The notes: generated by a model not told the origin, from the letters alone. Counted from the stretch's first letter, positions 47,974 to 60,676 are shown. The stretch is 64,000 bases of DNA from an uncultured Gammaproteobacteria bacterium (GCA_964507055.1 CAZDOJ010000001.1:141210-205209); one strand, 5' to 3'. Numbers and translations are program-made.

Positions 47974-47992
47974 AGGCAGTTCTTATGAGTTG

Positions 47993-48077
47993 TGCCGGGA
48001 GGGGGAGTCGAACCCCCACGAGGTATAATCCTCAAAGGTTTTTGAGACCTTCGTGTCTGCCATTCCACCACCCCGGC
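47993..48077 (-). tRNA. tRNA-Leu (anticodon CAA), class II long variable arm, CCA not encoded
   Basis: Reverse complement folds: acceptor GCCGGGG/TCCCGGC+A, D-arm GGTGGAATGGCAGACAC, anticodon stem AAGGT/ACCTT with loop CUCAAAA, T-arm GGGGGTTCGACTCCCCC. Confidence 0.8.
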
Positions 48078-54978: not shown

Positions 54979-55806
54979 ATGAATATCAGACCCAGACAAT
55001 CATCAGGAATTAAAAAGGGGAGACGGTTTAATTTTTCCATAGACAAGAGACAAAAATTTGTTCTTGGAATTTTGGCTCTTTCCATTGGTTTATTCATTAC
55101 AGAATTTCGCTTCGATCAATCTGGAATTTATATTGCGTTTCTTTTACCATTTTTGACTTGTTTATTCTTGTGGTGGGCGATAAGTGCAGACTTACGAGAA
55201 AACAAATCGTATCAAGTATTCATATTGCCGTTTCTGTATAGTTTGGCTTTTGGTTTTTTCTACTTTTTGACACCTACAACTTTTATTTTTAGACTTTTGC
55301 TTACCGCAATTTACGCTTTCGGATTATACTCATTGTTCCTTAGTCAGAATATTTTTATTGTTTCTTCATCAAGAACTATTCAACTACTTTCCGGGGCAAG
55401 AATTGTGTCCTTTGTCATAACACTTATTTCATATTTCTTTTTGGCTAATATTATTTTTTCTTTTCATGCCATCATTTTTCCTGTTATTGCACTTATCGGT
55501 ATTTTTAGTTATTTACTTATTTATCATTCATTATGGACTTATACACTCCAAAGGTATTCACAGTCATTAGCACTTTGGGTATCTGCTCTGACAGTTTGTC
55601 TCATTGAAGTGGCTACGTTAGTTTGGTTTTGGCCTAGTAATCCTACAGTTACGGCACTATTTCTAACAGGATTTTTATATGCGGTAGTAGGATTGAGCCA
55701 TATATGGTTAGAAAAGAGGCTATTTAAGGGGATTTTGTGGGAATATGTATGGGTTGGGACGATTGTGTTTTTTGTATTAATGCTTTTCACATCCTGGGGG
55801 AAATAG
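54979..55806 (+). CDS. Hypothetical polytopic membrane protein (7-8 TM)
   Basis: Coherent hydropathy, basic N-terminus; no family recognised. Confidence 0.5.
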   Translation: MNIRPRQSSGIKKGRRFNFSIDKRQKFVLGILALSIGLFITEFRFDQSGIYIAFLLPFLTCLFLWWAISADLRENKSYQVFILPFLYSLAFGFFYFLTPTTFIFRLLLTAIYAFGLYSLFLSQNIFIVSSSRTIQLLSGARIVSFVITLISYFFLANIIFSFHAIIFPVIALIGIFSYLLIYHSLWTYTLQRYSQSLALWVSALTVCLIEVATLVWFWPSNPTVTALFLTGFLYAVVGLSHIWLEKRLFKGILWEYVWVGTIVFFVLMLFTSWGK

Positions 55807-57033
55807 CCTCAAATTAGCCTCGAAAATTGATAGTTTTTAGCCTCAAATGGAGAAGTGGTATAAATACAAAAGTTATATGTTCCAGTAAGCCTTAATAATA
55901 ATTATATAATTATTATTTCTTTTAATACTTGCAGAGTAAGTAGTTATTTCGTGGCTAAAATAGGGAGAAGAGAGAAGTGGGAGAGCAACGTCCTATATAA
56001 TTATTGATATGTTATGATATAGTTGGGGATAACTTTTCACAAAAGACTTTTCACAGCCTCAAATGATATAGTTTGATGTATATTATAAACACATTTTTAT
56101 ATATAGAGAGACTTTAGTGAGAATCGTTGAAGCTTTGAATTACCTACGTAGTATCTATTATTCGGGAATAATTCTCCACCTTTGGCCTCATTTAGATTAG
56201 TATGTCAGCATTATTTTCATGGCATTGCTAATGATAGATGGGCATAGAATGAAAAAAAATACGAACATATAAATATGAAAATATGAGGCTAAAATTTTAG
56301 TTTAGGCTGTTTTATCAATCTAAATTTATATTAATTTACTAGCAGGTTCTCCATCGGGTAGAGGGGCATTCGGGAAGACCCTTACAAAGCTCAAACATGC
56401 TTAAATTGCACCTAGCCGGAGGAGGACCTGCTTTAATAAATAATACGTATGTAATTATTAAGTAAAAAGTTAACAAATATTGAAGCTGGAGCTTAAGTAT
56501 TTATACATCATTACTTTTATCCCTCGGTAGTAAAAAATTTTTTTAGGGAAGGATTTTTCTCTTTCATCTTGCAATGAGTATATGTCGCACAATAATACTT
56601 TTACGACGTAAAGTTTGATATTTTGAGGGGGAGGATCCAAAGTTCGTGTCGTTAAAATAAATTTACAAATGCATATTGTATATATACTCAACCGTGGTTC
56701 ATCTAGTGACAGCCTTTATGCTTCCTAGATTTATATAAATATTTCATCATTCTTTAGACATCCCATAGTCACTTTTGAAAAGCATTTCTTCACCATACAT
56801 CCGCACTTTCTAGCCTCAAAAATGAATTAATTACTCTCATTATAGATGAGGTTTATGGTTAAATAGCATATTTAGAGCTCCCCTCAGTCATATTTAGGCA
56901 GGGGGGTATTTTTCATAAGAAGTTTTTCCACAGGTCATGTTAGTGACTAGCAATGCGGTCTACATGCGATTAAAGTAAAAATATATACTTGAGGCTAAAT
57001 ATATAATGAATCACGAATAAACTAGCCTTAAAC
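55804..57033. repeat. Array of >=10 dispersed copies of motif TAGCCTCAAA(T) (both orientations) in a 1.27-kb AT-rich noncoding region
   Basis: Forward copies at 55804-55813, 55815-55826 (TAGCCTCGAAAA), 55838-55848, 56055-56064 (CAGCCTCAAAT), 56184-56193 (GGCCTCATTT), 56811-56820, 57023-57033 (TAGCCTTAAAC). Reverse copies at 56284-56294, 56301-56309, 56989-57000. No credible ORF in the region. Confidence 0.6.
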
Positions 57034-57083
57034 GCCGTAGAATGCGATTTAAGGGGCCTGTTTATTTAAAGATGAGTAATTAG

Positions 57084-58559
57084 TCAGTGAAGAATAGCTA
57101 AATCGTACGGCGGGTCTTGTAAGTCCTCTGTTTTATAGATATTTTGACCCTTTTCTAGTGCATCGAGAATTTGGATATATCTGTAGAATGCTGCATTTGT
57201 CCAACCGAATCCTTGTTGATCTCCATAGAGAGCTCCAGCACCAGTTTCACCGGTTTCACCATTAAGCTTTTCAAAGAATGTACCGAACTTACGAAAAGCA
57301 GCTGCATGGGCTTTTACTGAGTTAGACATTATACGACGAGCTTCATCAATATAACCATATCTGAGAAGGCCGATGACAGCTTGATATTCCAATGGAGACC
57401 AAATATTTGGATAATCCCATTGCTTAGGTTTAATGATTTCTTCAATGGCAGGGTGATATTGTGCCTGAATCTTAGATAAATCAACAGGTTTAGCTAGAGA
57501 TTCTTTTGCTGTTATTGTTAATCCATATGGCGTCTGAAATTTATGTAGCTTTTCAACGGTACGTTTAGCCTGATACGGCGAGGCTAGTCCTGCCCAAAGA
57601 GGCGTAAAAGAGGCGAGTGATAAGAAGCTACTTTTACGTCCAAAAGCATAATTATAATCTACAAAAAGCCCTAGCTGATCATCCCACATATATTTATTGA
57701 TTTCCACTGCCCTCGCTTTAGCCTTATCTCTCCATTTTTCCTCTTCAGCTCTCTCCCCTAGTATTTGTGAAGCTAATTCGAAGTCTTTTTCATACTTAAA
57801 TAGATACGAATTGAGGTCAATTGGAAGGAATTGGTCACAACGATTGTAGTATCGGGAAGTCATGTCCCAGCCTGATTCAAGCTCAGATGAATGTGCGTAT
57901 CCAATATCGCGATCACCATACCGTGCAAGGCCAAATTCAGCCACACTATGATTGTATGCCTTTGCTCTGTCGATCCATACAATCTCATATTCTTGCTTAG
58001 CTGTTTCAATAGCTCTCTTTAGCCATCTTCGCTTTGAAAGCTTGTAAAAACGCTGCTGTACGGCTCCCTTGGCGTATCTGTATGGGTTATTTGGATTGAG
58101 CCTTTTCAAATACGTATCAAGTATCATTGAAGTAAAAAACGGCGGTTGTGAGCGACCCATTGAGGCTGGAGCACTAAAATTAGGTACAATATGGAATGTA
58201 TTAAAGAGATATATGAAGTTTTCTACAGTCTCACGCATCAACCACTCACGTTTTGTTCCCATAAGTCCTCGGAACATAAAGAAACTATCCCAATAAAAGA
58301 TATAGGTAAACTTATTATCGTTTGGAACAAAATAATAGTGGGGGAGTTTGATGGATGTCGGATTAATATCCTTATTTTTCACAACATTCTTGTAGACAAT
58401 AGGCATCCTATCCCCAAAAGGGATTTTATCTGCGTATGGGAGTTGATATGGTAAATTAGAAATTCGATGCTCCAATCTCATCTTAGAGGGTTTGTATGTA
58501 ATGCGTTTCCAATAGTTATCTATATACTCGAGGCAATCCTTATATTCTTCATTCCACAT
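57084..58559 (-). CDS. GH37 trehalase
   Basis: Signature-1-like FTYIFYWDSFF, RSQPPFFTSMI, signature-2-like DQQGFGWTNAAF. Confidence 0.75.
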   Translation of the reverse strand: MWNEEYKDCLEYIDNYWKRITYKPSKMRLEHRISNLPYQLPYADKIPFGDRMPIVYKNVVKNKDINPTSIKLPHYYFVPNDNKFTYIFYWDSFFMFRGLMGTKREWLMRETVENFIYLFNTFHIVPNFSAPASMGRSQPPFFTSMILDTYLKRLNPNNPYRYAKGAVQQRFYKLSKRRWLKRAIETAKQEYEIVWIDRAKAYNHSVAEFGLARYGDRDIGYAHSSELESGWDMTSRYYNRCDQFLPIDLNSYLFKYEKDFELASQILGERAEEEKWRDKAKARAVEINKYMWDDQLGLFVDYNYAFGRKSSFLSLASFTPLWAGLASPYQAKRTVEKLHKFQTPYGLTITAKESLAKPVDLSKIQAQYHPAIEEIIKPKQWDYPNIWSPLEYQAVIGLLRYGYIDEARRIMSNSVKAHAAAFRKFGTFFEKLNGETGETGAGALYGDQQGFGWTNAAFYRYIQILDALEKGQNIYKTEDLQDPPYDLAILH

Positions 58560-58577
58560 ACACCTATACTAACAAAG

Positions 58578-59654
58578 TTATATGAGTAATCTCAATGCAC
58601 CATGTATACTACTATCTTCATTTGTGTGAAAAGTGACTGTATTTGAAGGAACTCCAAGGCTATTTAATTCATTTGTAAGCGTTTTACGGTATTTATATCC
58701 ATACATAAAAAGACTGCCTTCAGCAGAAATAGTCAAATTTTTAGGTTTTCCTTTAAATTCATATAGAGCAGCAATTTGCGTGGCTGCGTAACCTGCAGAT
58801 GTAGCAAATAATTCTCTTGCTAACTCCCCTGCTTTATTTTCATCAGTCGCTGCAAACTCGGCCATTTCTTCAGCTTTTCTAACACGTTCATTTATATTGT
58901 GTTTCTTTGCTAAGAGATTAAAATGTTGTGGCAAATAATATCCTGACATCATTTTTTCGAACTGATTGTTACCATAATGCTTGGATTGTTTATCTATTGC
59001 TTCTAATTCTTCACTTGGCTCAATTGCATGTGAGTTCCCTGCCTCAAGATTAAGAACATATGTCCCCTGCTCATCTTTCCCCTGTATTCCCATATTAAAG
59101 CCGGTACCGATTACGATTCCTGCATCCGTTTCTGTTAAGCAGACAATATCATTTGCAGCGGCAACGACTGCGTAGCCATTATGCTTGGGTATATACTTTT
59201 CGTGGACCAACTCCCCTATTTTGTGCCCAAGCAAACCTACGAGTGTATGGTCTTTGGTAGCTTTAATAAATGTGCCGTCAGGTTGTCCCTTTTCACCTTG
59301 AAAATACGACAGAGGAAATCCAACATTAAGTGCGATTGCGTCGACAGGAGTTGATAAATGAGTTTCAAGAAGTGCAAAAAAATCTTCTTTACTATTTATT
59401 GGAAGTAATTTCCCTTTTTCACGAAATGATATGACAGGCTTTTTACCTTCTTCAATCTCAACAACTGCGAAGTCGTAATTGGTTCCGCCTAAAACGACAA
59501 CTTGGATAGTTCCAGAGGTAATAATTGGTTTTTGAGGGAGATACGTTTTTATGCCTAGAAAAGGACTTTTCTCTCCGTGTTCAAGTGCACGAAGTTCATC
59601 TACTATCTTTTTGACAATATGTTCGTAGTCAGGTTTATGAACAAAGGTATTCAT
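58578..59654 (-). CDS. Hexokinase-family sugar kinase (eukaryotic-type hexokinase fold)
   Basis: YLPQKPIITSGTIQVVVLGGTNYDFAVV (cf. LPTG.E.G.FLALDLGGTNFRV), LNVGFPLS (cf. LGFTFSFP), VVAAANDIVCLT...IGTGFNMGI (cf. NDTVGT..GTGTNACY). Confidence 0.7.
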   Translation of the reverse strand: MNTFVHKPDYEHIVKKIVDELRALEHGEKSPFLGIKTYLPQKPIITSGTIQVVVLGGTNYDFAVVEIEEGKKPVISFREKGKLLPINSKEDFFALLETHLSTPVDAIALNVGFPLSYFQGEKGQPDGTFIKATKDHTLVGLLGHKIGELVHEKYIPKHNGYAVVAAANDIVCLTETDAGIVIGTGFNMGIQGKDEQGTYVLNLEAGNSHAIEPSEELEAIDKQSKHYGNNQFEKMMSGYYLPQHFNLLAKKHNINERVRKAEEMAEFAATDENKAGELARELFATSAGYAATQIAALYEFKGKPKNLTISAEGSLFMYGYKYRKTLTNELNSLGVPSNTVTFHTNEDSSIHGALRLLI

Positions 59655-59691: not shown

Positions 59692-59713
59692 ACATAACTC
59701 CGTGTCGTAGAAT
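59685..59713 (+). promoter_or_regulatory. Putative promoter for xer recombinase gene (TTGCCA-17-TAGAAT)
   Basis: Near-consensus hexamers 28 nt upstream of ATG 59741; -35 overlaps the -35 of the divergent promoter. Confidence 0.4.
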
Positions 59714-59740: not shown

Positions 59741-60676
59741 ATGGAAACGAAAATTGGACAACAAATAAATGAATTTTTTGAGTACCTAGAAGTTGAGAAA
59801 AACTCTTCAAAGCTTACTATTCGGGATTATCGTCATTATCTTGAGGTTTTCGAAAAATGGCACTCCTCTACTCTCGGTCGTGATTCCTTAGAAAAGTTAT
59901 CATTGGGTGATGTCCGAAAGTATAGAGTTTACTTAGCAAATAAGGTTGATAACAAAGGCAATACTCTTAAAAAAGTAACGCAAAATTATTATGTTATAGC
60001 ACTTCGATCGTTTCTCCGGTACTTAATTAAAAATGATATCCCAACACTTGAACCTTCAAAGATTGATCTGCCAAAAACTGAGAGCAGAAGTTTAAAATTC
60101 CTTGAACGTGAACAAGTCGAACGCTTGGTTACTATGCCTGATACAACAAAAGAAGATGGTGTTCGAGATCGAGCTATTTTGGAATTACTCTTTTCGACGG
60201 GACTCCGTGTCTCGGAGCTTGTTAGCCTAGATCATAAGCAGATCAATATCGAACGTCGTGAGTTTGGTGTTATTGGAAAAGGACGCAAGGCACGGATTGT
60301 CTTTATTTCTGATCGTGCTGCAGATTGGGTAGATCGCTATTTAAAGATAAGGGTTGATGTCTTTAAACCGTTATTTATACGTTATTCAGGAATGGTTGAA
60401 GAAGCTGATGAAGGAGAAAAGATGCGTTTAACTGCCCGAAGCATTGAACGAATTGTTAAAAAGTATGTTGAACAGGCTCGTTTACCAGTTGATGCAACGG
60501 TGCATACGATGCGACATAGTTTTGCAACCGATTTGTTAACAAATGGAGCAGATCTCCGATCTGTACAGGAAATGCTGGGGCATAAAAATATTGCGACTAC
60601 GCAAATCTATACACACATTACAAACAAACAGCTTCGGGATGTTCACAAAGCGTTTCATAGCGGGAATAAAGGATAA
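59741..60676 (+). CDS. Tyrosine site-specific recombinase, XerC/XerD type
   Basis: SAM-like N-domain; catalytic R...HxxR...Y: RDRAILELLFSTGLRVSEL, HTMRHSFAT, ATTQIYTH. Confidence 0.8.
   Translation: METKIGQQINEFFEYLEVEKNSSKLTIRDYRHYLEVFEKWHSSTLGRDSLEKLSLGDVRKYRVYLANKVDNKGNTLKKVTQNYYVIALRSFLRYLIKNDIPTLEPSKIDLPKTESRSLKFLEREQVERLVTMPDTTKEDGVRDRAILELLFSTGLRVSELVSLDHKQINIERREFGVIGKGRKARIVFISDRAADWVDRYLKIRVDVFKPLFIRYSGMVEEADEGEKMRLTARSIERIVKKYVEQARLPVDATVHTMRHSFATDLLTNGADLRSVQEMLGHKNIATTQIYTHITNKQLRDVHKAFHSGNKG

Follow-up and report, generated by a model that had tools for sequence, protein, structure and literature searches.

The stretch of contig CAZDOJ010000001.1 analysed here (64,000 nt, hereafter the window; coordinates count from its first letter) contains a large non-coding island that probably represents the Xer (dif-type) recombination locus of a Levybacteria-type chromosome of the Candidate Phyla Radiation (CPR), equipped with accessory or regulatory DNA sites. 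Judging from sequence comparisons, we place the probability of this reading at roughly 0.6. In the data, a 28-bp site composed of two 11-bp inverted arms and a 6-bp centre (11+6+11) is near-invariant, occurs once per locus and is linked to one Xer recombinase gene (xer); an arm of the site recurs at the promoter of this gene, and arrays of a second sequence, the TAGCCTC motif, are confined to the flanks of the site. The centre of the locus belongs to the well-known Xer/dif system. What sets the locus apart is its large, motif-dense and conserved flanks, and these flanks and the position of the site are its puzzling aspects.

Related loci were obtained from two sources. A trehalase search returned 80 loci with flanks of ±10 kb, nearly all from Levybacteria or Microgenomates-type CPR metagenome-assembled genomes; the islands of 53 of these genomes were used for motif densities. 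A scan of metagenome contigs with the 28-bp block identified at least 120 stretches, with one match in each. The pooled comparison covered ~170 loci (genome loci and the metagenome matches listed), comprising 172 full 28-bp sites in 1.74 Mb of locus DNA. Discriminative k-mer counts were performed over ~150 loci (denominator, 147), and among the metagenome matches listed, 47 loci had enough left flank and 54 had enough right flank to be used for gene order. Several contigs sharing the CPR gene order (L001, L007-L009, L013-L015 and others) are titled 'uncultured Gammaproteobacteria', 'Sulfotelmatobacter', 'Limnocylindrales' or 'Saccharimonadales', which are probably automatic taxonomic mislabels. 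An archaeal origin or a cluster of small nucleolar RNAs, a first guess from the AT-richness, was ruled out by the neighbouring genes and the related loci, which are those of a CPR bacterium.

The layout of the 28-bp site, whose sequence is given in Table 1 together with the coordinates of all other features, is near-invariant across the 172 full sites. The reverse complement of the right arm (ACGTCGTAAAA) equals the left arm at 7-10 of the 11 positions, and only at position 9 do the two arms differ consistently. The left arm has an A-rich inner end and the right arm a T-rich one. Of the centres, 129 read TAATAC and 40 read TATAAC. The full site occurs once in each locus over the 1.74 Mb and once in the window, and a viral collection scanned with the 28-bp block yielded no matches. 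Because 11+6+11 is the geometry of dif sites (PMC5357621; PMC2958812), the segment at 56582-56609 is predicted to be the dif-type core site for a single XerC/D/A-like recombinase. A canonical dif elsewhere in the window was also considered and was rejected, as matches to its inner motif (ATAA-N6-TTATGTnAA) occur there at chance level. In one related locus (L096), two extra weak dif-like 28-mers are located +506 and +536 from the core, just upstream of xer, with 7-8 mismatches to the consensus.

The product of xer was compared with the NCBIfam models, giving 248.3 bits for XerD, 248.1 bits for XerC and 205.6 bits for XerA (cut-off, 220), all of which are under the family cut-offs. Its closest solved structures are E. 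coli XerD and then P. abyssi XerA; XerH is distant. The near-equal XerC and XerD scores and the structural neighbours fit a predicted single, undifferentiated Xer. In 83 of 120 loci, the 160 nt that precede the xer start contain a half-site of the form GTCG[CT]A[CGT]AA, whose background frequency is 0.09 per kb. This half-site is frequently fused to, or overlaps, a TTGACA -35 hexamer (GTCGCACAATATTGACA), or is situated just ahead of the start codon. The repetition of the core arm at the xer promoter provides indirect evidence that the arm is the binding motif of the recombinase and that xer is autoregulated, and suggests that the recombinase may regulate its own gene through the promoter half-site.

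The island occupies 55807-57083, between the membrane-protein gene (+ strand, ending at 55806) and a trehalase gene (- strand, ending at 57084); these boundaries and the lack of genes agree with the initial annotation, which had been made from the window sequence only. Only two open reading frames (ORFs) of at least 30 aa are present in the island, both on the - strand with TTG starts (45 and 73 aa), and neither is conserved as a protein: their cross-species matches consist of the translated 28-bp site only, and they were rejected as small protein genes. All remaining gaps between called ORFs across the window are 288 nt or shorter. Across the ~170 related loci, drawn from genomes and metagenomes of Levybacteria-type CPR bacteria, a homologous island of 0.7-1.4 kb is kept. 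In the trehalase-retrieved set, the island could be aligned to the DNA downstream of trehalase in ~50 of the 80 loci, and in each of these ~50 an ORF-free gap of 0.75-1.4 kb adjoins the membrane-protein gene. The nearest complete chromosome (L001) is 69% identical to the island over 1.2 kb. The complete genomes OZ246394.1 (1.61 Mb) and OY970292.1 (1.14 Mb) have the island at about 172 kb and 376 kb, respectively.

The conserved gene order is lytR_C, a tetratricopeptide repeat protein gene (- strand), yebC, the membrane-protein gene, the island and xer, the last on the same strand as the membrane-protein gene. Among the metagenome matches listed, the membrane-protein gene is present on the left side in 47/47 loci and yebC in 44/47, and a same-strand xer lies on the right side in 50/54 (median start, +1164 from the core), with trehalase present in only 5/54. 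In the 53 genome loci, a set retrieved by means of trehalase, the trehalase gene and a hexokinase-like gene (both on the - strand; 57084-59654 in the window) separate the island from xer. The scarcity of trehalase in the metagenome loci indicates that the two genes are a later insertion in the subclade of the window and, together with the position of xer directly right of the island in most loci, that the island was ancestrally located just upstream of xer. The distance of 3.1 kb between the 28-bp site and xer in the window is therefore explained by the insertion of trehalase and hexokinase between them. Integration of this insert at dif in the manner of integrative mobile elements exploiting Xer (IMEX) was considered and rejected, because the insert has no second full site at its flanks.

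Exact TAGCCTC sequences occur nine times in the 64 kb, and six of these are in the island (forward at 55804, 55815, 55838 and 56811; reverse at 56285 and 56991). All four exact copies of AGCCTCAAA in the window are inside the island, as are 8 of its 22 matches with at most one mismatch, and looser variants begin at 56054 (CAGCCTCAAAT), 56184 (GGCCTCATTT) and 57023 (TAGCCTTAAAC). The tandem TAGCCTCAAA-motif copies that the initial annotation had reported at 55804-55826 are present, starting at 55804 and 55815, and its count of at least ten copies, seven forward and three reverse, is approximately right: with variants included there are 9-10 copies, ~7 forward and 2-3 reverse. Its statement that such a density is unlikely by chance holds for the clustering, with six of the nine exact copies in 2% of the window (binomial P ~5e-9), but not for the total, since one-mismatch matches in the whole window number 22 compared with 22.4 in shuffles. 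As the window total is at shuffle level, the signal of the motif is its clustering and not its count. A generic element or an unconserved region, which had been named as outcomes that would speak against a special locus, is likewise contradicted: TAGCCT has a density of 2.22 per kb in the homologous islands of the 53 genomes versus 0.27 per kb outside, and the island itself is conserved.

The consensus derived from 422 instances in the related loci is wTTTAGCCTCAAAt. Copies range from -900 to +500 from the core in the ~170 loci, with ~0.01 copies per 100 nt per locus elsewhere, and the enrichment in the k-mer counts is 26-44x (147 loci). Neighbouring copies are most often 10-11 bp apart. Positional peaks are located at -240 and +190/+200 from the core, GARGCTA prevails at both, and tandem GAGGCTAA copies are found at +190 and +200 to the right of the core. 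The reverse copy at 56281-56294 matches the cross-locus peak at -240 to -300, and the left-boundary tandem copies, 10-11 bp apart, occupy the same position in relatives (four copies in L005). The first motif copy opens with the TAG stop codon of the membrane-protein gene.

Because the copies are phased by 10-11 bp, occur in either orientation, keep fixed distances from the core and are confined to this locus, we consider the motif, with lower confidence, to be the binding site of a DNA-binding protein that acts at this locus only. An array of binding sites for a protein such as the adjacent Xer had been among the options of the initial annotation. The link with Xer is borne out by the position of xer to the right of the island, whereas Xer itself is not the predicted binder: its site is the separate 28-bp element, and the motif 7-mer bears no resemblance to the core arms and is, by sequence, not Xer's own site. 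YebC was also considered as the motif binder. The sole lead was the predicted YebC-family site SSTAGACR in Lactobacillus (PMC5561223), of which only TAGAC is shared with the palindrome at 56301-56324; this was too weak, and YebC was discarded.

The presence of inverted TAGCCTC repeats beside a tyrosine recombinase gene might also indicate an invertible or rearranging switch in which these repeats are recombined by the neighbouring enzyme, or the scar of a mobile element. A 14-nt inverted pair in the island (55835-55848 and 56281-56294) is 93% complementary, and the position and orientation of the TCCTATAAT module change among clades, so that it is found in either orientation. However, the other modules between the inverted copies keep their orientation while TCCTATAAT flips, which argues that the segment is not inverted as a unit; the arm sequence of the recombinase is unrelated to TAGCCTC; and both flanking genes point into the island, leaving no neighbouring gene to switch. 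A mobile element, or its boundary, as proposed from the window sequence, is opposed by the same syntenic position in ~170 loci, the lack of a transposase and the absence of matches in the viral collection. Either form of this explanation is highly improbable.

A further explanation is transcription of the island as a single long RNA or as a set of small structured non-coding RNAs, with the motif copies pairing as helices and the 28-bp element forming a hairpin with a 16-nt loop. In its favour, the outer pair of the core co-varies on the + strand (UA 27, UG 13, CG 11 and CA 2), U.G being far commoner than C.A. In addition, RNAalifold on seven close genomes proposes long-range pairs (GAGGCUA/UAGCCUY and GGGGGAGG/CUCCCCUC) with a few compensatory changes, and a 92-nt hairpin in the island has a z score of -5.8. 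The co-variation is nevertheless accounted for without RNA by the 11+6+11 geometry and the occurrence of the same arm at the xer promoter, being the pattern expected at the outer positions from a single recombinase bound to both arms. The earlier interpretation of the element as an RNA hairpin (6-7-bp stem and 16-nt invariant loop) was superseded on the same grounds. When RNAalifold was run on 46-53 sequences, the pairing that it returned was confined to the arms of the 28-bp site. The arms of the palindrome co-vary but show C.A as well as G.T mismatches, which would be expected of a double-stranded DNA site, and the order and orientation of the modules shift among clades. In many islands all motif copies share one orientation, which speaks against forward and reverse copies as obligatory RNA helices, and matched forward and reverse variants co-occur weakly (9 observed vs 5.2 expected).

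Database searches gave a similar picture. The island has no Rfam 15 match at the gathering threshold or at E values up to 10, the islands of 13 relatives likewise, and ARAGORN found no tRNA or transfer-messenger RNA (tmRNA) in it. A divergent tmRNA, RNase P RNA, signal recognition particle RNA or 6S RNA was rejected on the basis of zero Rfam and ARAGORN matches in the island even at permissive thresholds. The structured-RNA option that had been listed for this locus is thus disfavoured, and we regard the transcription of the island into such RNAs as quite unlikely. The 92-nt hairpin, found in two genomes only, may be a clade-specific insertion or a small RNA; it and the long-range pairs of the seven close genomes may leave room for small clade-specific transcripts, not for a conserved large RNA. 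Beyond the core, the 0.7-1.3 kb of the island is better described, as far as its sequence indicates, as a double-stranded-DNA grammar of short motif families in variable order and orientation.

Several of these families are located left of the core. GATATAG is found in 128/147 loci (20x enriched), and the spacing of its pairs is exactly 10 bp in 32 cases. The sequence (T)GTGGATA, corresponding to the perfect DnaA box TGTGGATAA, is found in 110/147 loci (25x enriched), and TTTTCAC[AG], which is one position off the relaxed DnaA box TTWTNCACA, in 128/147; of 118 TTTTCAC pairs, 79 are spaced by 22-23 bp. The same region shows an 8-11x enrichment of purine-rich 7-mers. To the right, the related loci carry a purine tract at about +45 and, in 47-49 loci, the motif CCCCTACTATRGG at 161-176 nt from the core (the +163 motif). 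The order of the modules differs among clades.

The left block raises the question of whether the island, or this block, is a DnaA-dependent replication element, i.e. a chromosomal origin or a titrating or reactivating locus of the datA/DARS type, with the TAGCCTC copies serving as sites for origin factors. The perfect DnaA box lies beside two TTTTCAC[AG] repeats and paired GATATAG, the latter could be an AT-rich unwinding element, and the direct repeats 22-23 bp apart are iteron-like. In a CPR genome study, origin and terminus were not apparent from gene predictions, and the origin defined by skew had short repeats with DnaA-box-like sequences nearby (PMC4736985). On the other hand, the box in the window (TGGGGATAA) is imperfect, the window contains about as many DnaA-box-like 9-mers as expected by chance (24 vs 20 expected, two of them in the island at up to one mismatch), the module order varies among clades, and a dnaA signature is absent from the window and from the first 80 loci (±10 kb flanks). 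Relatives carry one perfect and two relaxed DnaA boxes with the AT-rich GATATAG, whereas the island of the window has only two boxes with at most one mismatch, and inspection by eye beside the box did not reveal the GC cluster and in-frame trinucleotide repeat of the DnaA-trio grammar.

Strand composition and gene orientation bear on the same question. They were viewed within ±10-17 kb of the island, in loci that are related to one another; the right flank was lengthened by 10 kb via the source contig (L201 1-10000). Genes converge on the island: the + strand carries 84-87% of those on its left side, and the - strand 60-78% of those on its right side. The convergence persists 17 kb rightward in the source contig, where the skew is noisy, and some metagenome loci revert to + genes after ~7 kb. 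Gene skew was regressed on strand and side, and the coding-strand four-fold GC3 skew was determined in three data sets. In the 53 genome loci, the metagenome loci and the window, it was 0.02, 0.08 and -0.07, respectively, for + genes on the left; -0.01, 0.00 and 0.08 for + genes on the right; -0.25, -0.37 and -0.22 for - genes on the left; and -0.19, -0.29 and -0.24 for - genes on the right. A + strand rich in G to the left as well as to the right of the island is consistent with all four gene classes. The check for ori or ter by GC skew recommended in the initial annotation therefore gives no support to either, as strand composition does not switch at the island in any of the data sets, and the same sign on both sides rejects a bidirectional origin. 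A replication terminus at this position is suggested by gene orientation and not by composition. The flip in orientation without a switch in skew indicates either a dif-type site off the terminus or right-hand genes of unusual composition.

The skew switch and divergent genes that would mark an oriC are thus replaced by same-sign skew and convergent genes. An iteron array or partition site, also suggested earlier, would comprise at least three direct repeats of 17-22 bp next to rep or par; the core of the TAGCCTC motif measures 7-12 nt and its copies point in both directions, and the conserved neighbours include neither rep nor par. With the unswitched strand composition, the convergent genes, the lack of a nearby dnaA and the chance-level 9-mers also against it, an iteron origin or partition site finds no support, and a DnaA-dependent replication element is unlikely. 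A datA/DARS-like role of the left block may, by analogy, be compatible with the dif-type reading of the core.

The motif arrays could alternatively be polar fork barriers (Ter-like) or terminus-organizing (matS-like) sites around a dif located at the terminus. The motif adjoins a dif-type site, is oriented and is repeated on both sides of the core, and gene orientation converges on the island. In this case, however, the copies on the two sides should be opposed, whereas GARGCTA prevails at both -240 and +190/+200; the skew does not switch; and no Tus- or RTP-like gene was recognized among the conserved neighbours scanned. Known Ter and matS sites span tens to hundreds of kb and not 1 kb. Arrays of either kind have only a small probability here.

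Assuming that the island is a dif-type locus with accessory or regulatory sites, the following mechanism can be proposed. The recombinase would bind both arms of the core, with cleavage predicted at the borders of the centre, and a crossover between sister core sites would resolve chromosome dimers. Binding of the recombinase to the half-site at its own promoter would repress or tune its expression. The TAGCCTC arrays, and perhaps the other families, may recruit one or several proteins whose role would be to assemble the recombination complex, restrict it or insulate it. The motif-binding protein would form helically phased arrays to the left and right of the core and, by analogy and with lower confidence, could be either an accessory or architectural factor of the Xer synapse or a local regulator or insulator.

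Three points weigh against the dif-type interpretation. A switch in skew, expected of a dif at the terminus, was not detected within ±10-17 kb of the island; the model leaves the block of DnaA box, TTTTCAC and GATATAG unexplained; and the accessory role of the motif would rest on analogy. The unswitched skew suggests a dif-type site away from the replication terminus. This might be reconciled with function if these CPR bacteria used a plasmid-like, accessory-sequence-dependent dimer resolution, in which a single Xer acts on a near-symmetrical dif with a nucleoprotein complex on the TAGCCTC, TCCTATAR and TTTTCAC/DnaA-box arrays instead of FtsK and terminus polarity. Such dependence on accessory sequences would let the site work away from the terminus, but the proposal, which draws on analogy, is a doubtful one. 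A still bolder variant, in which the DnaA-box block is the origin and origin and dimer-resolution site coincide, is extremely improbable, as the convergent genes and the unswitched skew argue against it.

Comparison with known systems places the core close to canonical XerCD/dif, with which it shares the 28-bp length, 11-bp arms, 6-bp centre, high conservation and location in non-coding DNA (PMC5357621). It differs in that one xer is seen here, with equal XerC and XerD scores, and the arms are near-symmetrical with one fixed difference at position 9; moreover, the canonical inner motif does not exceed chance in the window and no switch in skew was detected at the site. As in the archaeal XerA/dif system, there is a single recombinase (205.6 bits with the XerA model; P. 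abyssi XerA is the second-best match among solved structures), an 11+6+11 site with few arm mismatches, conserved flanks and a site near the recombinase gene. The dif of Thermococcales lies among conserved sequences and inverted repeats that have been put forward as binding sites of partners, and predicted crenarchaeal dif sites are close to xerA (PMC2958812). The present locus, however, is bacterial, has another arm sequence and carries far larger flanks with at least four motif families.

The locus also resembles XerS/difSL of streptococci and lactococci and XerH/difH of Helicobacter and Campylobacter, in which one Xer is linked to its own core with imperfect inverted arms and a short centre in non-coding DNA. 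The Xer found here is nevertheless far closer to XerD, XerC and XerA than to XerS or XerH, and the core is 11+6+11, in contrast to the 31-bp difSL with its 11-bp centre. Furthermore, xerS is immediately adjacent to difSL and forms a single module with it (PMC5357621), whereas here the site lies 0.3-1.4 kb from xer in a large conserved non-coding region, with a separate half-site at the promoter. For the motif arrays, the closest functional analogy may be the plasmid sites cer and psi, in which a Xer core is accompanied by accessory DNA carrying sites for other proteins that control the reaction (PMC5357621). Unlike cer, which has ~180 bp of accessory DNA with ArgR and PepA, the motifs reach 500-900 bp on both sides of the core, are unrelated in sequence and belong to a chromosomal locus.

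As in iteron plasmid origins, the direct repeats of the left block follow each other at roughly two helical turns (22-23 bp) and are accompanied by a DnaA box and AT-rich repeats, but there are two repeats only (with a 7-9-bp conserved core) and no rep gene, and the block is chromosomal, conserved group-wide and not associated with a detected strand switch. E. coli datA and DARS1/2 and the DnaA-box clusters of B. subtilis are conserved intergenic elements off oriC that hold a few DnaA boxes together with sites for other proteins. The present block differs from datA/DARS in having one perfect and two relaxed boxes, predicted from sequence, and in adjoining a recombination site.

We came across no account of how CPR/Patescibacteria resolve chromosome dimers; among the papers listed in a literature search on dif sites and Xer in this group, none used the term Patescibacteria. 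The locus offers a candidate 28-bp site, its recombinase and a probable autoregulatory half-site at the xer promoter, and a streamlined genome of ~1-1.6 Mb retains around this site 0.7-1.3 kb of conserved non-coding DNA with at least four motif families, among them a perfect DnaA box. Should recombination be under the control of the flanks, these would be a chromosomal counterpart of the cer/psi accessory sequences and an echo of the archaeal dif flanks. If they are irrelevant to recombination, the finding would be a new dif/Xer pair, useful for annotation and for locating CPR termini.

Table 1. Features of the island and of the neighbouring recombinase gene.
Feature	Position	Strand	Remarks
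Membrane-protein gene	54979-55806	+	275 aa; PF18900 (DUF5656) in the precomputed Pfam table, no match in a separate Pfam scan
Left-boundary array, three forward motif copies	55804-55848	+	TAGCCTCAAAT at 55804, TAGCCTCGAAAA at 55815, TAGCCTCAAAT at 55838
Purine-rich tract AGGGAGAAGAGAGAAGTGGGAGAG	55958-55985	+	Precedes the left motif block; in all aligned relatives
TCCTATATAAT module with TATAAT-like hexamer	55991-56001	+	Orientation and position vary by clade; three copies in L053-L055
Paired GATATAG-type repeats, TGATATG and TGATATAGT	56005-56023	+	10 bp apart; third copy TGATATAGTTTGAT at 56064-56077
DnaA-box-like 9-mer	56024-56032	-	TTATCCCCA on the - strand; perfect TGTGGATAA/TTATCCACA in most relatives
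Two direct CTTTTCACA repeats	56033-56055	+	Starts at 56033 and 56047; spacing 14 bp in the window
Variant motif copy CAGCCTCAAAT	56054-56064	+	Overlaps the second TTTTCACA repeat; partly conserved in relatives (CAGGTTCAAA, CAAGCCTGAA)
A-tract followed by AAATACGA	56257-56264	+	In 76/147 loci
Reverse motif copy ATATGAGGCTAAAA (+ strand reading)	56281-56294	-	GAGGCTA at 56285-56291; best-conserved copy, in all 8 closest genomes
Palindrome TTTAGGCTG-TTTT-ATCAATCTAAA	56301-56324	.	Consensus TTTAGATTGAT-NN-ATCAATCTAAA; follows the GAGGCTAAAA copy
92-nt hairpin ending in CCGGAGGAGGACC	56341-56432	+	Minimum free energy -42.9 kcal/mol, z -5.8; clade-specific, common to L001 only
Predicted dif-type core	56582-56609	+	Left arm ATGTCGCACAA (56582-56592), centre TAATAC (56593-56598), right arm TTTTACGACGT (56599-56609)
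Purine tract GAGGGGGAGGA	56625-56635	+	Conserved; ~16 nt right of the core
Xer-arm-like half-site GTGTCGTTAAAA	56646-56657	+	37 nt right of the core; ATGTCGTTAAAA in L001; putative role
ACATCCCATAGTCA	56758-56771	+	Counterpart in this clade of the +163 motif CCCCTACTATRGG; identical in 7/8 closest genomes, one mismatch in L007
Forward motif copy TAGCCTCAAAA	56811-56821	+	Copies of relatives at +190 to +240, mostly in opposite orientation
Hairpin CTCCCCTCAG...GGCAGGGGGG	56878-56906	+	Conserved in the closest relatives
Inverted motif pair	56991-57029	.	GAGGCTA at 56991-56997, TAGCCTT at 57023-57029; conserved in trehalase-carrying relatives
Hairpin TAGCCTTAAACGC...GCGATTTAAGGGGCC	57023-57058	-	TTTATT follows on the - strand; holds one motif variant; blastn matches in trehalase loci only
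Xer-arm half-site GTCGTAGAAT	59704-59713	+	28 nt before the xer ATG
xer	59741-60676	+	Tyrosine recombinase, 311 aa; Pfam Phage_integrase and SAM-like N-terminal domain

A 4-codon mini-ORF (MSLK), preceded by GGAGGA, coincides with the half-site GTGTCGTTAAAA right of the core. Both hairpins reported in the initial annotation exist, the one at 56362-56382 being part of the 92-nt hairpin and the other corresponding to that at 56878-56906; RNAalifold, with seven sequences only, pairs CUCCCCUC with the purine tract at 56625 rather than within the latter hairpin. A consensus scan of the island detected fewer promoter-like sites than in shuffles and no terminators. The hairpin at 57023-57058, followed by TTTATT on the - strand, is probably the trehalase terminator, although the scan did not call it. 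The sole Rfam and ARAGORN match in the window is a tRNA-Leu(CAA) at 47992-48077 on the - strand.

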